In this document: positions 9,258-63,587 of the stretch, piece after piece | Layout: every line of letters begins with the position of its first letter | Numbering within the stretch: the first letter of the stretch is position 1 | Source: Vairimorpha necatrix | Lineage: Eukaryota | Direction: 5' to 3' | Assembly (NCBI GenBank): GCA_036630325.1 | Contig: CP142727.1 | Location: forward strand, 434,001-498,000 | Length of the DNA stretch: 64,000 nucleotides | Made by a program: the position numbers and the translations under genes | The notes under the pieces: model-generated | Database searches by the model: none | Told to the model about the DNA's origin: nothing | What the model saw: only the letters and a program-made list of their open reading frames with translations

Positions 9258-10193
9258 TAACAAAAAAAATATTTTCTATTTTTCTAATATATTAAAAAAA
9301 TTAAATTTACATTTTAATGTTTATCAGGTTCTAGGCATGAGTAATAAATTAGTTCAAAATACCTAAAATCTAGTCTTGTTTGCATCTTATCTCCATCTTT
9401 TCTATGTTTGATACTTTATTTGTTTTTTTAATATCAAATCTTACTTATAAAAATTTCAATTTCTTTATGCTCCTAAAAACAAAAAAAAACATAATATGTT
9501 ATAATAATAAACTTATAAAGGGTTAAAGGCAAATCGTTGGTGTATATCTTAAAAATCTAGAGCGCGTTTTTTTGTTTACATTAAAAATAAATATATAATA
9601 GTAATATCGTCTTCTAAATTATTTTTTAGAATATTTTTTTTAAAATTTATATAAATAAACACGCAAATCTGGTTTAAAATAAAAGCAAGTTTTTTTTCTT
9701 ATATATGAAAATATTCAGCTTGTAACTTAGTAAAGTATATATAAAATTTTTTATAAATGGAGTAAGGAAATTTGAAAAACTCGAAAGCAAATCTTTTATT
9801 AAGTCTTTTAGAATTTGAATAAATAGAGCAACCATTTAAGTCGATAAAAAACAAAATTTAAGATGATTGTAATTCAATATTTACGTGTTAAAAAATTATA
9901 TTTTTGGTTCAGCAAAATTTAATTAATTAAATTTTTTTTTCGTGTTGTAAATAAATGATCTAGTTAAAGAATTATTAGGTTTATTTTAATTGATATTGAC
10001 TTCAGAACAATGTTAATTCGTACTAATATTCACCATTTGGTATTATAATATCTTCTTATAGTAATTTGTCAGCAAATTTTGAGCTATCATTGAAAATATA
10101 TTTTAAACTGTAAAATCTATCAGTACTTAACCACATTTTTGACTGTAAAGACAAAAAAAAATAGTTACTTAAATTGATTAAGTTAATATAATA

Positions 10194-10231
10194 TGTTAAC
10201 CATTTATTTATTAAGGGTTCTAAACCCTACA
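10194..10231 (-). repeat. 3' LTR of element 1 (38 bp)
   Basis: TG...CA ends, adjacent to the PPT. Contains the polyprotein stop codon (TAG, 10222-10220). Confidence 0.95.
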
Positions 10232-13200
10232 TCCCCCCTCCAGACGGGTAGTCTCTCCATCTTCTAAACAACTCTTCCTTATCTCTTTCAAATCATAATG
10301 CCTCTTTTTAACAATTTTACCATCCAGTAGTCTCACAATATATGAATCATTTTCACTTATAGCTACGATCCTTCCGCGACCCGTGAATCTTCCCTTGTCT
10401 GTTTTCGCACGTGTACCTAAATTTTCTCTCCTAGCGATTCTTACCTCTTGGCCTACTGTAAATGTCTCTCTGTGTCTTCTCTTGAACCGACCAGCATATT
10501 TTCCATTTTCATCATTTTCAATTATAACTTCAGCAGTTTGATCTCTCCACGCTTCCATCGGCGTACATTTTATTGCTGTATGTAGTGTATTATTATATCC
10601 TTTGATTGCTCTTTCTATCTTTTCAGAAATATTCCCATCATTTTGCTTTATCAATGTCTCTCTTATAGTTCTGATGCATCTCTCGATTCTACCATTACTC
10701 CTATGAGCTTCTAAGCCCACTTTCCTATGTTTAATATCATTAATACTACACCATTCTTTAAATCTATTACTTACAAACTCTTTTCCGTTGTCTGTCACAT
10801 ATTCCTCTGGAAAACCATCTTCCCTTATCCACTTTTGTAATACCTCTATAACTTCACTACTCTCTTTACATCTCAAATTCGAACCCCACAACCTTCTAGT
10901 AAAGTAATCAATACCCAGTAACACATACATATTCTCTCCACCTATGTCCATTAAATCCAACGCCACTTTCTCCAATTTCTTTCTAGTTACTACAAAATCA
11001 CATCCTCCTGTGTTTTTCCTATTGTTAATCCCACATATTTTTCAATTCTTAATTACCTTATTAATATGATCTTTCATACCAGGCCAATACCATCTTTGTT
11101 TAATGTTATAATAAGTGCCTTTGACACCTCTATGGTTTAACTCCTCATGTACTCTTGTTATTTCATGTTCTCTACTATCTAGGCTCAATATCTCTTTCAC
11201 CTCACCTGTGGAAAATTCCCAATACTGTTTACCGTCCTTTTCTTTAATATGTTTCTGCTTTTTTCCCAAAATTTGTTTTTCGATCACTTCTTTTCTCTTG
11301 TTGTCCTTTTCTTTTTGTTCATCCGAAACTTCTACCTGATCATACTGCCTGCTTAACGCATCTGCATCTGTCATCAACTCCCCTTTCACATACTCTATTG
11401 TAAAGTCAAACTCTTGTATCTGTTCTACCCATCTGTTTATTCTGTTATTATTGAAGTATGGCTTATTTCTGATCTCTGCTAATGCTTTATGATCCGTCAT
11501 CAAATGAAATTTCCTTCCTCTCAAATCACTTTCAAACTTCTTTATTCCAAAAAACACCGCCAACATCTCCTTCTCACTTATCGTATATCTTCGCTCGGTA
11601 GGAGTCAACATTTTCGATGCCCATTGTATCGGAATCCACTCACCCTCTTTATTTTCTTGTAATAGAATTGCTCCGATCCCCGTATCACACGCATCAGTTC
11701 TTACTCTAAATAGCTTTTTTCCGTCCGGAATCTTCAACTTTTTCATATCTCTCAAGCCTTGCTTCATATCCTCAAAGGCTCTTTCCATATCCTCCGTCCA
11801 ATTCCACTTAACATCTTTCTTTAAAGCCTCAGTAAGCCTTACTGTTCTATACGCATAGTTGGGAATAAAGTCTCTAAACCAACCAGTTAGTCCTAAAAAT
11901 CTTCTTAACTCTCTAACATTCTCAGGTTTTCTATATTCCAATGTCTCCTGCTTTTTAATCTCATTCGGTCCCATGACCTCCCCATTAATTGTTACTCCCA
12001 GCAACATCACCTCATCTTTTTTGTATTGTATCTTTGTTTGGTTTATTCTCAACCCACACTCTTTAAACTTTTTAATTACCCTCTCTAGTAACTCGTCATG
12101 CACTCTTACGTCTTTACCATGAATAACTATATCATCCATATATACTTCCACGCCTTTACCTCTGAATTCATCTAAAACTCTGTTCATTACTCTCTGCATT
12201 ATATGAGGCGAATTCTTAAACCCCATAACCATACTATTCCATTCGTATACTCGACCATTCACTTCAAATGCTGTTTTGTGCTTATGGTGCTCCTCAATCT
12301 CAATATGATAAAACCCTTCTTTTAAGTCGATAACCGTAAATACTTTTGACCCCTGTGTGGCTCTCATAATATCCTTAATTAACGGTAGTGAGTACGGGTC
12401 CTTGTCAACCAAATCGTTTAACGCCATCAAATTGCTTACCAATCTTACGTCCCCATTTGGTTTTTCAAGTGCTCTTATTGGACTCCTCCACTCACTTTTG
12501 GAACGTCTTATAACCCCTCTATTTTCCAACTTATTCAAGTACTCCTCAAATTTCACCCTAAGGTAGTATGGCACATTCTGCCCTCTTTTCACAACCTTTT
12601 CACCTTGCTTAGTATTTATTGGACACTTCTCTCCTGTGAGATATTTTATCTTTTCTTCTGATTCTTTAAAAACTTCCGGATACTTTTCAATTAAATTTTC
12701 TAACTTATTTACTGTTTTACATCTTTTCCCTTCATTGTTGATAATTGGTTCTTTCTGTAAAACTTGTTCCTTTTTAATTTTATATTTTTCCCTACCAGCT
12801 ACACTTTCATGACATTCTCTAGCGTAATGCCCTTCTTTCTTACATATAAAACATTTTGTAGTTTCTCTGATTTCTCTTCTTTTCCTATACATCCTAAGAT
12901 TTTCTTTTCTTTCTTCCCTAAACTCTTTCAACACTTTATCCATAATCTCTTTAATCATTTCTTGTCTTTCTTTTGACTCTCTCTCAAATTCTGCTCCTTT
13001 TTGTAAGCCTTTATAAATTTCCTCCCAACTGCTCCTTCCGTCACAAAAATTTTCAAAAATATAATCCTGCAAGTTCGCAGATGCCAAATCCATAACATCT
13101 TTCCACTCAACTTTCTCAACTTTCAATATTAACTTTAGTCTCTTATCTATCCTAATTGCCTCTTTCTCTAATGTTCTAGCCTCTTGACTACGGGACTCTC

Positions 13201-13240
13201 TTGTTTCCCTGTTCATCCTTGTGTTCGCCATGTTAACCAT
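10220..13240 (-). pseudogene. Single Gag-RT-RNaseH-integrase polyprotein of element 1 (1006 codons, one premature TGA)
   Basis: CCHC knuckle CFICKKEGHYAREC, RT YMDD, RNase H TDA...E...TDH...DALSR, and integrase D,D(35)E (VALDL/TDNG/SNGRIER). The two listed ORFs are in frame, with TGA at 11044-11042 replacing the first Cys of the integrase CxxC. Confidence 0.92.
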
Positions 13241-13268
13241 TTATTTATTAAGGGTTCTAAACCCTACA
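13231..13268 (-). repeat. 5' LTR of element 1 (38 bp)
   Basis: Minus strand TGTAGGGTTTAGAACCCTTAATAAATAAATGGTTAACA, followed directly by the TGG PBS. Confidence 0.95.
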
Positions 13269-13352
13269 TAATATATAAAATTTTTCTTTTATTGATGCAA
13301 TGCACTAGTCTTGATATTATATTGTAACTATAAAATTTGAACATGTATACAC

Positions 13353-16300
13353 TGTGTTTATTTTCCATAATGAGGGGTAAAAATAATAAGGATATATAAC
13401 ATCCCCCCTCCAAGACGGTAGTCTCATACTAGAACTCATTAATCCCAAGCAGACCTTTAAAATCATAATGCCGCTTTTTCACGATCCTACCATTTTCCAA
13501 ACTAACTAAGTACGAGTCACCTCCGCAAACTTCCTTGATAACACCATATCCTAAAAACCTTCCTTTCTCATACTTACTACAACCCAATAAGTTCTCTTTC
13601 TTCGCTACCCTAACTCTCTGACCTTTATAGAATTTCTCTCTTTTGCGAGCCACAAACCTCCTACTATAAAATCCTTCAGGTCCATTCTCGATCATAACAT
13701 GGCCCGTTTCGTCTCTTGAGGCCTCAAACGGTGTACATCTCAACCCTTCATGATAGCTGTTATTATAACGCCATATACATCTATTAACCTTGGCTTCAAA
13801 ATCCACAGCATCATCTTTCAATATTCCTTCTCTTATGGTTCCTATTACCCTTTCCACTCTTCCATTACTTCTATGACTTTCTACGCTTACTTTCCTATGT
13901 AATACATTTTCCTCTGAACACCAATTCCTCATATATTCATTACTAAATTCTTTACCGTTGTCAGTAATTATTTCTACCGGTTTCATTCCTGATCCACACA
14001 ACTGTTTTAAAAATCCTACAACCGAGCTTCCGCGTTTGTCCTCTATTACTTTTCCCCAAACGATCCTAGTATAATAATCAATCACGACCAACACATATTT
14101 CCCTAAATCTCTAAACTCAATCAAATCCAAAGCAACCTTTTCCAAATAAAATCTTGAACTAACAAAATCACAACCACCACTCTTTTTCCTATTATGTATT
14201 TGGCAAACTTCACACTTTTTTAAAACATCCTCGATATCCTTCTTCATACCCGGCCAATAAAATTCAAACTTCATTGCATAGTACACTGGTCCTAAACTTC
14301 TATGTCCCAAATTTTCATGAGCATTGACAATTAAACCTTCACGCAATTCTTTCTTTGGAATCTCCGCTTCTCTACCAGAGTCAAATACCCAAATTTCCTT
14401 TCCATCAACAACTTTAACATGCTTGTCCCATTTACCCTGTGCCTGTTTAATACTTCTCTCCTTATTCATTAGCGTTTTCTCATTTTCATGTACCCTACTC
14501 AGTGCATCTGCTACAACCATGGTACTAGGCTCTCTATATTCAATGCTAAAGTCGAACTCTTGAATCTTTTCAATCCACCTGTTAATTCTATTATTGTTAA
14601 ATGCTGGTTTATTTCTAATCTCGATCAATGCCTTATGATCAGTTTCTACCCTAAATCTTCTTCCGCGTAGTTCATATTCAAACTTTTTAATTCCCCAAAA
14701 GACTGCATACATCTCCTTCTCACTGATTCCATATCTCTTTTCCGTAGGCGTAAACTTTTTTGATGCCCACTGTACTGGTACCCAATTACCTTGATCATCT
14801 TCCTGCATTAAAACAGCACCCATTCCAACATTACTCGCATCCGTGCGTAACAAAAATTCCTTATTATAATTAACAATTGCTAAACCTTTTAAATCCCTAA
14901 TCACTTCCCTTAAACTAATATATTCTTTTTCCATTTCTTCTGTCCATTTCCAATTACTTCCTCGTCCTTTAAGAGAATCCGTCAACGCCAATGTACGTTT
15001 TGCATAATTATCAATATGATTTCTAAACCATCCAGCCAGCCCAAGAAACTTCCTAACATCTGATACACACTCCGGTTTGGGAAATTCTAACGCTTCATTT
15101 TGCTTTATTTCAGATGGCAGTATCTCCTTGCCATTAACTGTTACTCCTAACAACATCACCTCTCGTTTACATAATTGAACCTTAGCCAAATTAATTTTCA
15201 TATTATTCTCCTCTAATATATCCACAGCCTCTTTCAACAATTTGTCGTGACCCTCTCTTGTCTTACTATGAATCACAATATCGTCCATATAAATTTCGAT
15301 TCCCTTACCAATAAATTTTTCAAAAATCCCATTCATTATTCTTTGTAATATCTGCGGAGAGTTTTTAAACCCCATGACCATCGAATTCCACTCGTATACC
15401 TTTTTATTAAACTCAAAAGCCGTCTTAAACCTATCCTTCTCTTCATCTCAATACTATAAAACCCCTCCTTTAGATCTATCACGGTAAAAAATTCAGATCC
15501 CTGTGTACTTCTAATAACATCTCTTATCCTAGTTAACTCATAAGGGTCCTTCTCTACAATGTCATTAAGAGCAATTAAAATACTTACTAATCTTATATCA
15601 CCATTCGGTTTCTCAATCGCTCTAATGGGATTTCTCCAGTCAGATGTCGACCTTCTAATTATCTTTCTTCTTTCCAAACTATTAATATAATCTTCCGTCT
15701 TCTTCAACAAAGCCTGAGCTATAGCCTGCCCTTTTTTAACAACTTTCTTGCCTTCTTGAGTCTTGATAATACATTTTTCAACCTTACAAAAACTAATATC
15801 TTCATCCTCTCTTCCTCCTACCCGTGAAATAATCTCCTCTAAATACGCGATGCCTCTTACATCCCTTCTCAACAGAACTCTCTTATTATTGTCCCTTTTG
15901 CTATAATCTTGTATATCCCCTAAATTTTTCTTCTTACGTTTTCCACCATCAACATTATAATAATCACATTTGTCCGAATTGGAATCGTCATCAAATTTAC
16001 CCCCTAAGTCTAATTGCACTTTACATTTACCAACATAATTAAAACTACTTTTATTTCTTCTGTCTTCAGAATCTCGCCTCATTCCCCTACAAAATCTAAC
16101 ACTATGGCCTAACTTCCCACAATTGTAGCAACGCATATTCTTTTTATTTTCCTCACGAGACAACTTATTCTTCTCCTCAAATTTAGCCCATAACGCTAGG
16201 GACAACTCTTCAAATTCTTTTTTTCTCACTTGTTCCTTTTCCTCCTGAATAGCTAGCAACTCTAATTTTTCCTCAATTTCCTTCCAACTACCCTCTTGCG

Positions 16301-16535
16301 AGATCCTCTCAACAATAAAATTTCTCAATAAAATAGAACCTCTCCTAAAAATTTCTAACTTAAATCCACACTCATCAATTTTCTCTAAAAACAACTCATA
16401 AACAATCCTTTTAACCTCTTTTAATAATATTCTAGCCTCTTGGCCACGGTCCTCCTTTGTAGACCCATTTTCTGGTATCGCCCCCATGTGTTTATTTTCC
16501 ATAATGAGGGGTAAAAATAATAAGGATATATAACA
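13353..16535 (-). mobile_element. Ty3/Gypsy-type LTR retrotransposon, element 2 (3183 bp, 49-bp LTRs)
   Basis: Identical repeats TGTGTTTATT...ATATATAACA at 13353-13401 and 16487-16535. TSD TACAC at 13348-13352 and 16536-16540. PBS TGGGGGCGATACC and PPT GGAGGGGGGA. Confidence 0.97.
13429..16502 (-). pseudogene. Gag-RT-RNaseH-integrase polyprotein of element 2, one 1-bp frameshift in RT
   Basis: CYNCGKLGHSVRFC knuckle, YMDD, HHCC and DDE motifs. FYSIE(I)EEKDRFKTAFEF is restored by adding one base near 15445, which joins ORFs 15336-16502 and 13429-15381. Confidence 0.92.
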
Positions 16536-17361
16536 TACACTATTAATATGTAATTACTGTATAAATATGTACTATTTCAACCACTTATTCTTACTTTTCT
16601 GATATACAGTGTATTTTTTATTTTAGATATTACTTATATTAAAAATTTTAATGCGCATAAGGTATAATAAGATGTATTTTTTTCTCATTGTTTATTCTTA
16701 AAAATCAAATTCTGGCTATGATCAATAAATAATATAAAAAACAAAGTACATTTTTGTCAAGAAATAATTGAGGTCTATTAATTCTTTTTAAACATAATTC
16801 TTTTAAAAAAAAGAAGATGTTTAATTGCATTTTTTATAAGTTTTAATTCACATTTGTGAATTAATTTTCTTTATTTGATCAAAACAAATATTCATAAAAC
16901 AATGTTAACATTTAATTTTAAATTTAGAAAAGGAGACAATTTTTACCAATTTTTAAATAATAAAAAATTTATGAATGGTTAATGAATTTATTTATAGTAG
17001 AGTCGTGTTTTCAAGTAGAATAGAAAAGAATATCTTTAAGGTTATTTTTTCAATTGAATTTATTGCTATACAAACAAACAGTATTGTTTATATTTCATTC
17101 GGAAGAATAAATTTTAATAATAAGAGCCTTAAATCATCAGATTTTTTTGGACATATGTTTGTAGTCATTTTATTATTGAAAATATATATGCTTACTCAAA
17201 GTTTTAAAACTTTTGTATAAACAACATCATTAATAAGCACTTCCTAAAATATGCAATTCATATAGTATATTAGAATAAATGAAAAAATTGAGGACAAAAA
17301 TAAATTATAATTAATAAAATTGTAAAATATGAAAAACGGTGTAAAAATTTAGTTAATGAAT

Positions 17362-17808
17362 TTAATCTTGATCTATCACAAGATAATAATATCTTACATG
17401 TATCTTTTTGTAATAGAGCTTATATAACCATGCAAATATTTGCAATATTTTTTTAGAGAACGTATTGTTGATAAATGGAAGATTTACTATGTGATCATAA
17501 TTTCTCTCCCAAAAATTTTTCTTTTTAAGTGTTTTCAAAGGCGTTGTATGCAGTGTTACTATTATGTTTTTGATAACTTTATCTTTAGATTTCTTTTTAG
17601 TTATATTAGACACGAAGATTTTGCCATTATCTTTTTCATCCTTAATCACAACAGTCAATGTGTCTTCATAGTTGTTAATACGAATGACTGATATTCCATG
17701 ACGTTTTAATTGATCCATAAATTGTGTTGAGCATATTTGATCATTGGGAGAATTCAAATATCCTCCCATCATGTTACAACTTATTGTAAATAAGAATGCA
17801 AATATCAT
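17362..17808 (-). CDS. Hypothetical small secreted protein (148 aa)
   Basis: ATG start with short hydrophobic N-terminus MIFAFLFTISC. No known domain. Confidence 0.5.
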   Translation of the reverse strand: MIFAFLFTISCNMMGGYLNSPNDQICSTQFMDQLKRHGISVIRINNYEDTLTVVIKDEKDNGKIFVSNITKKKSKDKVIKNIIVTLHTTPLKTLKKKNFWERNYDHIVNLPFINNTFSKKILQIFAWLYKLYYKKIHVRYYYLVIDQD

Positions 17809-58515: not shown

Positions 58516-59513
58516 ATAAATGCTTTTAAAGAAACGGTTTTTTACTTTTACAAAAAGCATGTATTATTTTTTATCATACTTAGATTTTAAAATTTTATTC
58601 TTTGAGATGAGATGCCACTAAAATAAGCATATTAATATGAGAAAATGTGATAAGAGCTTTTAAATCAATAAATTAGTTTAGTAAATTCATAAAACATGTT
58701 TGAGTTAAAAAATAAAAAATTTGAGATAAATTGTGAACTTTTATTTTTTTGATGTTTTAGCATTTATATAAAATTCCAAGAAATATTTGACAAGGACAGT
58801 CAAAATCAAATCAACATTTAATGGTAAGATTGGTGTAAATTTTATAAAAATTTATAATATTTTTGATTTTCAAGGATAGAAAAATTATCATATGATACTA
58901 AAGCTGTATGAAATTGTTAAATCTCGGCTAGCAATAGAACTTAAATAATACACCATATACTTAAAATTTTTCATGTTTATTTATATGCTTTTGGTACAGA
59001 CATTTATTTTAAAGTTTCCTGTTTAATTTAAGAAAAAAAGTCGAATTGTAAGTTAAGTGTGTGTTTATCTTAACATGGTCACAGGTTCAAAAATGAGATA
59101 TTGTGTAATAAAATGAAAGACAGAAAATTATAGTTTACTTAATGCAATATTATCGTAAGAAATTATACTACGGTAACAAATGTTTCAAAAAAAATAAATT
59201 TGTTTTTATAACGAGTCAAATTTACAAATTAAAGAAACTTTCGTCATGCGAAGAATATAATAGAAGACGTTGTAGTGACACTTTATTAGTATCACAAGAT
59301 ATTCCGATTAGAAATATATAAGAATGTGCAAGTAAATAAAGCATATAAATAAAGTATGATAGTCACTACATAGGGAGATTAGGGTTAAGGCCAAAAAAAC
59401 TTAAATGGCGTTTTTTTAAATGATTACATTTCTTTAAGATTTCTTTCTCAACAATAGTCAACAGAAGAAAACATCATAGAAAACTAAACAAAATTATATA
59501 AACTTATATTTAT

Positions 59514-62500
59514 TGTTATATATTTTTATTTTTTTGATCCCCAATTATGATAAATAAATACATGGGGGCGATACCGAATCGTGAGTTAACAAGTGTTGGC
59601 TGTGGTCAAGAGGCCAGAAGGTTATTAGAAGAGTTTAAGAGATTTGTTTATGGATTAGTATTGTCTGATTATGATTTTGAGAAAAATGTAAAGAACGAGA
59701 TTTTTGATCTTGGAACTGATGAGTTGAAAGAATTTATGGTTAAGAAAATTAAGATTGGAGATCATTGGAAAGTTATGGAAACCAAATTAGAGGAATTGGT
59801 TAAAGTACAGGAGGAAAAGGATATGAGATTACGGATGATTGAGGAGGTCACAAAGATGGTGGCAGAGGAGATTAGAAATATTAGTAGAGAGGAAAGAATA
59901 TTTGAGAAGAGAAGAACAATGAGATGTTATAATTGTTCAAGAATGGGACATAAGAGTCAGATGTGTTATTATAAATATAGAAATGTTAAGAATAAAGACG
60001 AATGTGAGAGTATTAAAGAAGAAGATAGCATAGCTGTGGTGAAAGGACTTATAGGAACACATGGGATGCTAAAAGACAAAAGAAACAAGAATGGAAGACA
60101 AGAAATAAAAGATGTTATGATGAGGTAGAAAAGAACGGTCTAACATTAGAAGACATGAGAAAGAGGTTTAGGAACGTTATAGACAACGAAGAAGAGAAAA
60201 TAAGATATTGTAAAATTGAGAAATGCAGAATCAGAACTGAAGAAGGTAAGAAAGTTGTAAGGAAAGGTCAGCAGGTGCCACAAGCGCATAAAGAAGAGCT
60301 GAGAAAATATATTCAGAGGTTAGAGACAAGGAACGTCATAAGAAGATCGACGTCGGAATATAGAAATCCGATCAAAGCTTTAATTAAGCCAGATGGAAGT
60401 ATAAGACTGGTAAGCAATCTCATGGCATTAAATGATTTAGTGGAGAAAGACCCTTATGAATTAGTGAACATTAGGGATATCATAAGGAACACGCAAGGAT
60501 CGAAGTTTTTCAGTGTTATAGACCTTAAGGAGGCTTTTTATGGAATCGAAATAGAAGAGCAAGACAAGCATAAGACTGCATTTGAGTATGATAAGATAGT
60601 ATATGAATGGAATAGTATGGTCATGGGTTTAAAAACTCGCCTCAGATCATGCAGAGAATTATGAATAAGATTTTTGAAAAACATTTGGGTGGTAAAATAG
60701 AAGTATACATGGATGATATAGTGATTCATGCGAAGACTAGAAAAGAACATGATAAATTATTTGTAGAAGCGATGAAATTGTTAGAACGGAATAATATGCG
60801 GATAAATTCAAGGAAAATTCAGTATTGCCAAAAGGAAGTCAAGTTATTGGGAGTTACATTAAACGGAGATGATATGATGCCGTCTGAAATCAAGAAAAAC
60901 GAAGCACTAGAGTTTCCAACGCCGCAGAATGTGTCTGACATAAGAAGATTTTTAGGACTGAGTGGATGGTTTCGAGGATTTATTAAGAATTATGCGGAGA
61001 AGACATTATATATGACTGAAAGTTTGAAAGGTAAAAGTAAAGTATTGAATTGGACTGATGACTTAAATAAAGAGTTCGAAAATATGAAGGAAACGTTAAG
61101 AAGTATGAGTAAGTTGAAAATTGTAAACTATGACAAGGAATTTTTATTAAGAACTGACGCGAGCAATATAGAAATGGGCGCAGTACTCATGCAGAAGAAT
61201 GATAAAGAAGAGTGGGTGCCAGTACAATGGGCATCGAAGAAATTCACCCCGACGGAAACTAGATATGGTATAAGTGAAAAAGAAATGTATGCCATATATT
61301 GGGGAATAAAGAAATTTGAGTATGAGTTAAGAGGACGAAAATTTAAAGTAGAAACGGATCACAAAGCAAAGGCGAAGATAGGAAGAAAGCCGTGTTTTAA
61401 TAATAATAGAATTAATCGATGGATTGAAAAGATCCAAGAATTTGACTTTGAAATAGATTACAGGAAACCAGAACATATGGTCGTGGCGGATGCTTTGAGT
61501 AGGATACACGAGGAGGTTGATCCAAGAAAAGAGATGATAAAAAAAGAAGTGAGCGTCAAATTGAAGGTAAATGGTTGAAACACGTCGAGACAATAGATGG
61601 TAAAGAATACTGGAATTTTGATTCGGGGAGGAAAGCATTGATTCCTAAAATAAAAGAAAGAGATGAGCTTATGAGACGTTATCATGAAGAGCATGGACAC
61701 AGAGGACTAGGAAGCATGTATTATGCAATGAAGTTTGATTATTATTGGCCAGGAATAAAAGAAGATATAGTGAAAATGATAAAAAGATGCGAGGAGTGTC
61801 AAATTTACAATAGGAAAAAGTCTGGAGGATGTGATTTTGTTGCTACAAGCAGGTATTTAGAAAAAGTGGCGTTAGATTTAATTGATTTTAGAGATAAGGG
61901 CAAATATGTATTAGTTGCGATAGATTACTATACGAGGATAGCGTGGGGATGTGTATTATACGATAAGAAGAGATCCTCTGTGGCCCAGTTTATTGAGAAC
62001 TTATGTAGGAATGGCAGGAGGCCGAAGAAAATAATAACGGATAATGGGAAGGAATTTGATAATGTTGACTTTAAGGATTTGTGAAGAAAATTGGATATTA
62101 CCCATAATAAGGTGAGTGTCGAGTCTCATAGAAGCAATGGTAGAGTTGAAAGAGTTATAGGAACGCTTAGAGAGCTAATATTGAAAATGAGTAAAGAGAC
62201 GACGAGTTTTGAAGACATAGTGATGAAAAGCTTTAAAATTTACTATAATAGTTTTCATGAAGGTATAAGAAGTACTCCCAATGAAGCGGTAAAAGACAAT
62301 ACGGGAAAAGTGATGATATTAAATGGACCAGAAGGAGACTACAGTAAAAGATTTGTTAGAAGATATAGAGAGCGGTTTATTGAAGGACAACGAGTAAGGA
62401 TAGCTAAGAAAGAAAACATCAAAGGATGTAATAAATATGAAAAGGGAAGGTTTTTAGACGAAGGTATTATAATGGTGATATGCCCTGGGGACTCGTAAGT

Positions 62501-62654
62501 TGTGAAGCTATCTAATGGGCGATATGTTAAAAAGAGACATTATGACTTGAAAAATCTGCTTGGGGTTAATGGTGATGTAGGAGACTAACCGTCTTGGAGG
62601 GGGGATGTTATATACTCTTATATTTTTGATCCCCAATTATGATAAATAAATACA
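59514..62654 (+). mobile_element. Ty3/Gypsy-type LTR retrotransposon, element 3 (3141 bp, 49-bp LTRs)
   Basis: LTRs at 59514-59562 and 62606-62654 (3 mismatches). TSD TTTAT at 59509-59513 and 62655-62659. PBS TGGGGGCGATACC and PPT GGAGGGGGGA. Confidence 0.96.
59547..62588 (+). pseudogene. Decayed Gag-RT-RNaseH-integrase polyprotein of element 3
   Basis: CYNCSRMGHKSQMC, YMDD and DDE motifs. Frameshifts in the post-knuckle linker, near 60630 and near 61545. In-frame stops at 62082-62084 and 62496-62498. Natural stop at 62586-62588. Confidence 0.9.
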
Positions 62655-63587
62655 TTTATTATTATTGATAAGGAAAATCAAAGAGTTAAATGTAGATTCG
62701 ATATCAATATAAAAAATTATATATATCATATTGAAATATGATAAAAATGCATCTGAACAAAAAGTAAATGTGTCTTTTTAGTATTTATTAATAGTTAAAA
62801 ATTTTTTATCGCCCAATAATAGAAAGTCAATAATAAGCTGTATGATTTTACCCTTTCACAAATATCAGAAAAATTAATATAAAAACGATATTTGTGTCTT
62901 TAAAGTTTTTTATTTGAAGTTTAAAGCGGAATATCGCTTTATTTACTTACATTTGTCGATAAAGTATACATTCTTTGAAAAATCGCAACGGTCAATTCCG
63001 GACAATTTCTCATTAGAAAGAATCTTAGAGAGATTTAGAAAAATAATGAAAATGATAAAATCATTTTTTTTAAAAACTTTGATGTTGCAAACAGAAATAT
63101 GCTACTATTCTATAATTTTTAGATATCCTATGCTTCTTCGATGGATTAAATCTTTCAAACCCCCGGCATTGGAGCTTCTCGTATTGTTTTCAAATATTTA
63201 TTCCTATTAGATACGATCAGGGCTTTATATCAAATTATAACATTACCTCCTTCATTTATATTAACTCATCATAAAAAACATTGCAACTTTGGCAGTTATA
63301 TTATTCGACTGCCTTGATTTATATTTACCAATGTTATACAAGTTAAAACTTATAAAAGTATTTTTTAATGAAGCATTTCCCATGAGAAAAATTCGGCGTG
63401 TGCCGTGCAATTCTCAGTTCCTTTATTCGTACTTTCTAAATATATGTCAAAAAAGTTTAATTTTAACAAGATATATGCATTCAAAGTAATTTAACAAGTT
63501 TTACGCCACAATAACCGTTTTGTTGGTTTTTTACAATCTCTACTATTTTACGGCATAAATTTTCCTTTTTTGTTGTTTTGTAAATTA

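Follow-up and report, generated by a model that had tools for sequence, protein, structure and literature searches.

Ty3/gypsy-type elements of Vairimorpha necatrix with long terminal repeats of 38 to 49 nucleotides that contain CCC, ATG and AATAAA motifs

The 64,000-nucleotide (nt) stretch of Vairimorpha necatrix DNA analyzed here (GenBank assembly GCA_036630325.1, contig CP142727.1, forward-strand positions 434,001 to 498,000), referred to below as the window and numbered from its first letter, contains three elements with pairs of long terminal repeats (LTRs): A (3183 nt), B (3075 nt) and C (3141 nt). Their LTRs span only 38 to 49 nt, and each holds a CCC motif, the ATG that opens the long coding frame of the element and an AATAAA hexamer, as the initial annotation had described in three LTR strings (LTR1, LTR2 and LTR3) that proved letter-perfect. 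A, B and C are genuine, recently mobile and extremely compacted Ty3/gypsy-type LTR retrotransposons, and their size places them with the most compact representatives of this type. Taking the evidence together, we consider it probable that they use host-like signals located in the LTR.

Structure of elements A, B and C

The LTRs of A, B and C have TG..CA ends, and a target-site duplication (TSD) of 5 bp flanks each of the three elements. A putative primer-binding site (PBS) stands directly 3' of the 5' LTR, and its TGG follows immediately upon the terminal ..CA in all six 5' LTR/PBS junctions read, those of A, B and C and of three relatives described below (L007, L029 and L025). The features of the three elements are listed here (RT, reverse transcriptase; IN, integrase; PPT, polypurine tract).

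13353..16535, minus strand: element A, Ty3/gypsy-like retrotransposon of 3183 nt, gag(CCHC)-RT-RNaseH-IN
16487..16535, minus strand: 5' LTR of A, 49 nt, with CCCC at 16511-16508, ATG at 16502-16500, AATAAA at 16496-16491 and a junction ATG at 16487-16485
16472..16486, minus strand: PBS-like TGGGGGCGATACCAG of A, directly 3' of the 5' LTR, coding for Met-Gly-Ala-Ile-Pro
13402..13411, minus strand: PPT GGAGGGGGGA of A, abutting the 3' LTR
13353..13401, minus strand: 3' LTR of A, 49 nt, 100% identical to the 5' LTR
16536..16540 and 13348-13352, minus strand: TSD GTGTA of A, on both outer flanks
10194..13268, minus strand: element B, 3075 nt, 58% nt identity to A
13231..13268, minus strand: 5' LTR of B, 38 nt, with CCC at 13254-13252, AATAAA at 13249-13244 and 13245-13240, ATG at 13240-13238 and a junction ATG at 13231-13229
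13217..13230, minus strand: PBS-like TGGCGAACACAAGG of B, coding for Met-Ala-Asn-Thr-Arg
10232..10241, minus strand: PPT GGAGGGGGGA of B, translated within ..Leu-Glu-Gly-Gly
10194..10231, minus strand: 3' LTR of B, 38 nt, 100% identical to the 5' LTR, with the pol stop TAG at 10222-10220 inside it
10189..10193 and 13269-13273, minus strand: TSD TATTA of B, on both flanks
59514..62654, plus strand: element C of the A-like family, 3141 nt, 65% nt identity to A, older and much broken
59514..59562, plus strand: 5' LTR of C, 49 nt, with CCCC at 59539-59542, ATG at 59547-59549 and AATAAA at 59553-59558
59563-59575, plus strand: PBS TGGGGGCGATACC of C, directly 3' of the 5' LTR, the same PBS as in A
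62596-62605, plus strand: PPT GGAGGGGGGA of C, abutting the 3' LTR
62606..62654, plus strand: 3' LTR of C, 49 nt, with 3 differences from the 5' LTR (94% identity), all within the first 17 nt
59509-59513 and 62655-62659, plus strand: TSD TTTAT of C, on both flanks

The Pfam domain order is zf-CCHC, RVT_1, RT_RNaseH, Integrase_H2C2 and rve in both A and B, with zf-CCHC scores (18.5 and 19.2 bits) just under the curated cut-off of 20.8. The four domains from RVT_1 to rve are all present in 25 of 25 aligned relatives; zf-CCHC was matched at E ≤ 0.01 in 13 of them, and CxxCGxxGHxxxxC appears in the alignment consensus. With Pfam profiles as the means of detection, no aspartic protease family matched any of the seven element open reading frames (ORFs) of the window, and one weak match was obtained among the 25 full-length relatives. 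About 110 amino acids (aa) between the zinc knuckle and the RT have no domain assignment.

The coding frame of A has a single break inside the RT, near 15444-15450, and at 15444 the contigs of all three sequencing runs covering this position (X1, X15 and X19) have one base more than the window. The frame of B has one break, which falls in the integrase between 10975 and 11042, and that of C has many. The G+C content is ~25% for the window and 35%, with a strong strand skew, at 10-16.5 kb and 59.5-62.7 kb. The coding strand of the elements is strongly purine-rich (plus-strand GC skew of about -0.45 for A and B), and the composition of the elements has not settled to that of the host. No solo LTRs were found in the window at ≤25% mismatch.

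Recent mobility

One contig of run X1, with sides of 53 and 51 letters, joins position 10189 of the window to 13270 and skips the 3080 nt between them. Five letters at this join fit both sides, and they correspond to one copy of the target duplication of B. At a second join, the same contig passes from 13348 to 16539, so that 3190 nt are missing and two other letters stand between the sides. Since this contig carries neither A nor B, both are recent insertions whose ends are exactly as defined above, and their absence from another sequenced sample makes them usable as strain markers. In a contig of run X15, unrelated sequence gives way to element A at 13353, pointing to another insertion site of A.

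Element A is covered by contigs of runs X1, X15, X16 and X19 at 95-99% likeness. The 3165-nt contigs found in X1 and X19 correspond to the element minus one LTR plus 31, a size as expected if the assembler merged the two LTRs. In X1, the elements have a word depth of ~60-65 and their flanks one of 2-4, which is not a copy number and gives a hint of many element copies. Along element A, depth in X15 is uneven.

Runs X15-X20, which are labelled with several organisms, hold element A alone, at 95-99% likeness and with no flanking host DNA. This pattern is compatible with low-coverage infections in which the repeat alone assembles or with near-identical elements across hosts or parasites. Elements A and B lie head to tail in the same orientation, 83 nt apart (13269-13352); this adjacency reflects either two independent insertions at almost one spot or a preferred target locus.

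Relatives of the elements

A family search with the 732-aa frame of B identified, as nearest named proteins, homologs in Nosema granulosis (73% identity), Vairimorpha apis, V. necatrix, Enteropsectra breve, Pseudoloma neurophilia and Pancytospora philotis. Also recovered were numerous unnamed single proteins, 1000-1040 aa long and encoded on contigs of only 3.0-3.3 kb, and the compact one-frame plan is therefore family-wide. Intact relatives encode one gag(CCHC)-RT-RNaseH-integrase frame of ~1000-1040 aa.

Metagenome-assembled genome (MAG) records labelled Clostridium sp. and Turicibacter sp. (L004-L008, L019-L045) contain 51 and 17 matches to Ty3/gypsy polyproteins, and these bins are evidently contaminated by microsporidian or other eukaryotic DNA. 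Contigs in these two bacterial records provided five LTR types in addition to those of A, B and C:

L004: B-like LTR of 38 nt, 68% aa identity; purine tract GGAGGAGGGGA abuts the 3' LTR
L007: 58-nt LTR pair, 100% identical, with a single frame of ~1089 codons; no clear purine tract before the 3' LTR
L029: 75-nt LTR pair
L025: 176/172-nt LTR pair; the CCC of the 3' copy corresponds to GGG in the 5' copy
L035: upstream region only

Other candidates were set aside: L001, L002, L003, L005, L006 and L008 are truncated or decayed and lack an LTR pair, the contig-end repeats of L023 and L027 look like assembly overlap, and L020 has no recognisable LTR beside its frame. Scans of viral contigs for more LTRs found none.

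Conservation of the CCC, ATG and AATAAA layout

Counted from the first base of each repeat, CCCC, ATG and AATAAA occupy positions 25-28, 34-36 and 40-45 in LTR-A, which ends in ..CACA, and positions 26-29, 34-36 and 40-45 in LTR-C. LTR-B, ending in ..AACA, has CCC at 15-17, AATAAA at 20-25 and again at 24-29, and ATG at 29-31. The layout persists in the larger set: a CCC ahead of an in-frame ATG, together with AATAAA, is present in all eight LTR types or upstream regions, that is, in A, C, B, L004, L007, L029, L025 and the upstream region of L035. From the CCC to the first in-frame ATG there are 5 nt in A, 4 in C, 11 in B, 10 in L004, 18 in L007 and none in L029, the 3' copy of L025 and L035. 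A C triplet thus lies no more than 15 nt upstream of the ATG in every type except L007, where the distance is 18 nt and the first ATG is the one at the LTR/PBS junction. In A, C, L029, L025 and L035 the hexamer comes after the ATG and encodes Asn-Lys amid differing neighbouring residues; B and L004 have it between the CCC and the ATG, and L007 has it ahead of the CCC.

The last C of the CCC motif lies 20, 19, 20, 19 and 18 nt before the last base in the five tiny LTRs, and all their differences in length are upstream of it. LTR-A and LTR-C are identical at 39 of 49 positions, with 65% identity across the whole elements, and the three differences between the two LTR copies of C all lie upstream of the CCC.

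LTR-B also contains a palindrome, GGGTT TAG AACCC, at 13262-13250 and 10225-10213, the second arm of which is the CCC motif. L004 keeps the GGG..CCC of this palindrome with a different loop.

Overlap of the coding frame with LTR, PBS and PPT

Each long frame opens within the 5' LTR, at 16502 (A), 13240 (B) and 59547 (C), with the in-LTR ATG as first codon, and the encoded peptides begin MENKH-MGAIP (A), MVN-MANTR (B) and MINKY-MGAIP (C). The codon of the second Met straddles the junction, combining the final A of the LTR with the TG that opens the PBS; the four or five codons after it are supplied by the PBS. Every 5' LTR/PBS junction that was read, in A, B, C, L007, L029 and L025, has such an in-frame ATG. 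Translation accordingly covers ~10-16 nt at the end of the 5' LTR, the PBS in full and the polypurine tract, and in B-type elements also the first third of the 3' LTR. The frame of B ends GAG ACT ACC CGT CTG GAG GGG GGA TGT AGG GTT TAG, a stretch that spans the purine tract and the first 12 nt of the 3' LTR.

The same overlap is apparent among homologs. Of 120 matches, 34 were used, namely those with ids up to P0072, at least 930 aa and M as first residue. A leader of 3-7 codons followed by Met and then Ala or Gly was found in 15 of these 34, with exactly 6 codons in 10 of the 15. In all 15, that Met is preceded by His, Tyr, Asp or Asn; these residues have NAY codons, as expected if ..NACA followed by TGG is read in frame. 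A further 5 of the 34 start directly with Met-Ala or Met-Gly, and 14 show neither pattern. The peptide MANTR also opens relatives P0005, P0009 and P0012, and a C-terminal peptide of the ..ETTRLEGG.. kind occurs in 6 of the 34.

The initial annotation had placed the gag start codon in the LTR. This holds insofar as the in-LTR ATG is the first codon of the A, B and C frames; it may not be the sole or essential start, because a junction ATG is present at every junction read and is the only start in some relatives. We consider it unlikely, though worth weighing, that the junction ATG is the real start and the in-LTR ATG of A, B and C a dispensable extension, in which case transcription could begin anywhere from the CCC to the LTR end and R/U5 might fall well below 18 nt. 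The junction ATG is in frame at A, B, C, L007, L029 and L025, it is the first ATG of the frame in L007, homologs with a direct start at this Met exist, and the leader peptides vary in sequence and length (3-7 codons, with 10 in L029 and 16 in L025), all of which agree with such a start. Against it, the in-LTR ATG of A, C, L029, the 3' copy of L025 and L035 stands 0-5 nt after the CCC, which is the spacing seen at host genes (0-7 nt in 8 ORFs, see below), and the 6-codon leader of 10 of 15 homologs puts the ATG right after the CCC position. An R of just a few nt would, moreover, be shorter than the 12 nt shown to support strand transfer (PMC13370168).

Gene signals of the host in the window

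Host signals were assessed on 18 non-overlapping ORFs of at least 100 aa, after ORFs of transposable elements and those overlapping a longer ORF by at least 60 nt had been dropped; some of the 18 may be non-genes or start elsewhere. The host ORFs of this gene-dense window are ordinary eukaryotic genes, among them Sec63, an aldo-keto reductase, a DEAD helicase, RPN6 and a ubiquitin hydrolase (861 aa). A search with RPN6 led to a protein cluster in which the few labelled members are mostly microsporidian, a weak lead that agrees with a microsporidian host. Eight of the 18 ORFs assessed have a CCC in the 15 nt that precede the ATG, at a spacing of 0-7 nt, against a background of 82 in 1932 ATGs (4.2%), an enrichment of ~10-fold. 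The layout had initially been described as preceding most host genes in the window; at 8 of 18, the CCC precedes many rather than most. The T-rich run and CCC of LTR-A and LTR-C resemble these host upstream regions.

Both the CCC motif and the very short 5' untranslated regions (UTRs) of microsporidian genes, which the initial annotation had taken as established, are in print (PMC2685015, PMC2803860). Over-representation of CCC was first shown for Nosema ceranae and Encephalitozoon cuniculi (PMC2685015), and 5' UTRs in E. cuniculi are shorter than 7 nt, with the CCC immediately upstream (PMC2803860).

At the other end of the genes, A[AT]TAAA occurs at -23 to +40 of the stop codon in 14 of the 18 host ORFs, with 5.3 expected. 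It often wraps the TAA stop or lies within 7 nt after it (for instance at 17362, 26302, 29193, 38791, 39026 and 46247), which suggests host 3' UTRs of just a few nt. Given this enrichment at stops, the hexamer is a plausible 3'-end signal of the host.

A model for transcription and reverse transcription

Element structure and ends, the insertion polymorphism, the overlap of frame and LTR and the conservation of the motifs can be seen in the sequences; the transcription start, poly(A) site, primer and length of R in the following model are predictions. Read against these host signals, the T-rich stretch and CCC of the LTR would act as a host-type core promoter. As at host genes, RNA polymerase II would initiate no more than a few nt past the CCC, so that U3 would span ~17-39 nt. 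The LTR would then contribute at most ~18-20 nt (R plus any U5) to the 5' end of the RNA, and the start codon would follow almost at once. A tRNA would prime at the translated PBS and yield a minus-strand strong-stop DNA of ~18-20 nt. The transcript would pass through the 3' LTR, where AAUAAA would direct 3' processing. In B, L004 and L007, as at host genes, the pol stop precedes the hexamer by a short distance (5-9 nt), and a cleavage site another 10-20 nt on would come to lie close to the LTR end. For A and C, processing would occur at or past the LTR end; the 3' R would be internal to the RNA, and annealing would still be possible. The short strong-stop DNA would anneal to the 3' LTR copy in a normal first-strand transfer on short homology, the PPT would prime the plus strand and the integrase would make the 5-bp duplication.

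From the small size of R and U5, an unusual strand-transfer step had been proposed. Such a step is not required, because R measures 16 nt in mouse mammary tumor virus (MMTV; PMC6088434) and an R of 12 nt in murine leukemia virus (MLV) or of 14 nt in a lentiviral vector suffices for transfer (PMC13370168). The related suggestion that compact host signals allow U3-R-U5 to shrink gains some support from the relatives with 58-, 75- and ~176-nt LTRs, which differ mainly upstream of the CCC and so fit a shrinkage of U3.

Somewhat more tentatively than the model above, we propose that the elements represent a microsporidian Ty3/gypsy clade compressed to ~3.1 kb, in which each cis signal would overlap the frame. 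With an LTR of 38-58 nt, the promoter would end ~20 nt from the LTR end, translation would start in the equivalent of R/U5, a junction ATG would follow, PBS and PPT would serve as codons and no recognisable protease would be encoded. The minimal LTR may thus comprise ~10 nt of integrase end, ~15 nt of host core promoter and ~12-20 nt of repeat.

Evidence against the model and alternative explanations

Several observations weigh against the interpretation of A, B and C as mobile elements driven by host-like LTR signals. The window copies are not autonomous, because all three frames are broken, and none of the three complete relatives on MAG contigs, which were possibly assembled from several copies, has matching TSDs (0/3). 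The eight LTR types represent only ~3-5 independent lineages. The constant spacing of 18-20 nt from CCC to LTR end fails as a family rule, with 30 nt in L029 and 48 nt in L025. AATAAA changes its place with lineage (after the ATG, between CCC and ATG, or before the CCC), is present by itself in 12-18% of random host windows of LTR size and, in its proper form, is not enriched 0 to +40 nt past host stops (3/18). Because the hexamer of A and C ends 4 nt before the LTR end, cleavage 10-20 nt further on would fall in flanking DNA rather than at an internal R/U5 border, and the same hexamer would also stand ~10 nt from the 5' end of the RNA, where it would have to be ignored. Finally, the window contains no tRNA genes, and a weak search, by an 11-nt pattern in the two relative-bearing MAGs, returned no PBS-complementary tRNA. 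Two exact 11-nt matches to the PBS pattern in the MAGs were rejected as chance, since they lie in bacterial-looking sequence without a tRNA.

The frequency of AATAAA in host windows and its unfixed position are also what would be expected if the motifs were by-products of composition and coding, with AATAAA due to chance and transcription arising by read-through or from a start near the LTR 5' end. Microsporidian transcription is reported to be leaky, with read-through across genes (PMC2803860), which lends this explanation some further plausibility; we nevertheless judge it improbable. The chance of finding CCC and, within 20 nt, ATG together with AATAAA in random host windows is 0.19% at 38 nt, 0.40% at 49 nt and 0.59% at 58 nt, or 0.2-0.6% per window, yet the combination is present in 8 of 8 LTR types. 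The LTRs of A and C are more conserved than the coding average, the differences between the LTR copies of C spare the region from the CCC onward, and Asn-Lys (AAT AAA) is the sole dipeptide kept in the otherwise variable leaders. A start in flanking DNA would, in addition, give a strong-stop DNA unable to anneal at the 3' end, in a family that has transposed recently with exact ends.

The tRNA searches bear on a second alternative, non-standard priming or transfer, either by self-priming of the Tf1 kind or by transfer without R homology. The very short R/U5 and the failure to find a tRNA matching the PBS, weak as that search was in a window without tRNA genes and in two MAGs, point in this direction, as does the lack of a Pfam protease in 7/7 window ORFs and 24/25 relatives, which may indicate an unusual particle biology. 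We regard this alternative as very improbable. The TGG placed right after ..CA at 6/6 junctions is the normal tRNA-CCA arrangement, no complementarity between the last 20 nt of the LTR and the PBS was apparent as judged by eye, and an R of 12-16 nt is enough in retroviruses (PMC6088434, PMC13370168).

Implications

On the interpretation favored here, of compact retrotransposons using host-like LTR signals, a parasite's mobile element would have adopted the miniature gene signals of its host genome, and A, B and C would offer a natural lower bound for LTR content. Under the compressed-clade proposal above, 3' LTRs and solo LTRs would all act as portable promoters, each with a start codon directed into host DNA. 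At the sequence level, the way in which the frame overlaps PBS and PPT offers a handle on the minimum of R homology and U3 that a retroelement needs. Since the usual search tools, with a minimum LTR of 50-100 nt, would miss such elements, the retrotransposon content of microsporidia may be under-annotated.

Comparison with known systems

The LTRs of Ty3/gypsy elements usually span a few hundred nt, and those of A, B and C are ~5-10 times shorter. The three elements share with canonical Ty3/Metaviridae the RT-RNaseH-IN order, a CCHC gag, TG..CA LTRs, a 5-bp TSD, a putative tRNA-type PBS and a PPT; they differ in their size of ~3.1 kb, compared with ~5 kb, in having no Pfam-detectable protease and in a frame that overlaps LTR, PBS and PPT.

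Single-polyprotein Ty3/gypsy elements are known in microsporidia, where they encode one fused gag-pol polyprotein and form microsporidia-specific clades (Parisot et al. 2014, PMC4202319). A, B and C resemble these elements in their single fused frame, a PPT of the GGAGGGGGA kind and TG..CA-type ends; the terminal repeats of the Anncaliia algerae 'retroA' consensus are ~190 nt long, as opposed to 38-49 nt in A, B and C (PMC4202319). The literature searched held no statement on LTR length, an in-LTR start codon or a translated PBS or PPT in microsporidian elements; the tables of PMC4202319 and the study of Nbr elements in Nosema bombycis (Xu et al. 2006) lie outside it, so that a prior description is possible. 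The miniaturisation of the LTRs is real and striking, and its functional meaning, as read from sequence, would be that outlined in the model above.

The shortest LTRs found in print are those of grass elements, namely the 85-bp repeats of FRetro129/SMART, which is non-autonomous, and the 76- and 90-bp repeats of FRetro64, an autonomous copia element (PMC3281118). An LTR of 38-58 nt is shorter than that of any autonomous element found in print. These grass elements share with A, B and C the TGT..ACA ends, a 5-bp TSD and LTRs far under the usual size, and termination signals inside the LTR are equally unclear; they differ in being plant Ty1/copia-related, in LTRs about twice as long and in a frame that starts outside the LTR.

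Among retroviruses, first-strand transfer works on 12-16 nt of homology, in line with the maximum of ~18-20 nt predicted for A, B and C. Retroviruses with a short R keep a long U3 and U5, whereas the whole LTR of A, B or C is shorter than most retroviral R regions, the R of these elements itself being a predicted one. As in LTRs of the HIV-1 type (HIV, human immunodeficiency virus), with AAUAAA in R, the hexamer of A and C would, if transcription starts right after the CCC, be present at both RNA ends and ignored at the 5' end (PMC13370168). Unlike in HIV-1, there is no sign in A, B and C of RNA structures or upstream elements that control poly(A) addition, and B-type LTRs have their hexamer placed between CCC and ATG.

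A further parallel to the LTR layout is provided by the core promoters and 3' signals of microsporidian genes themselves, with which A, B and C share an AT- or T-rich stretch, a CCC a few nt from the ATG and an AAUAAA-like hexamer near the stop (PMC2685015, PMC2803860). The difference is one of location: here these host-type signals sit in the terminal repeat of a mobile element and hence at both of its ends.

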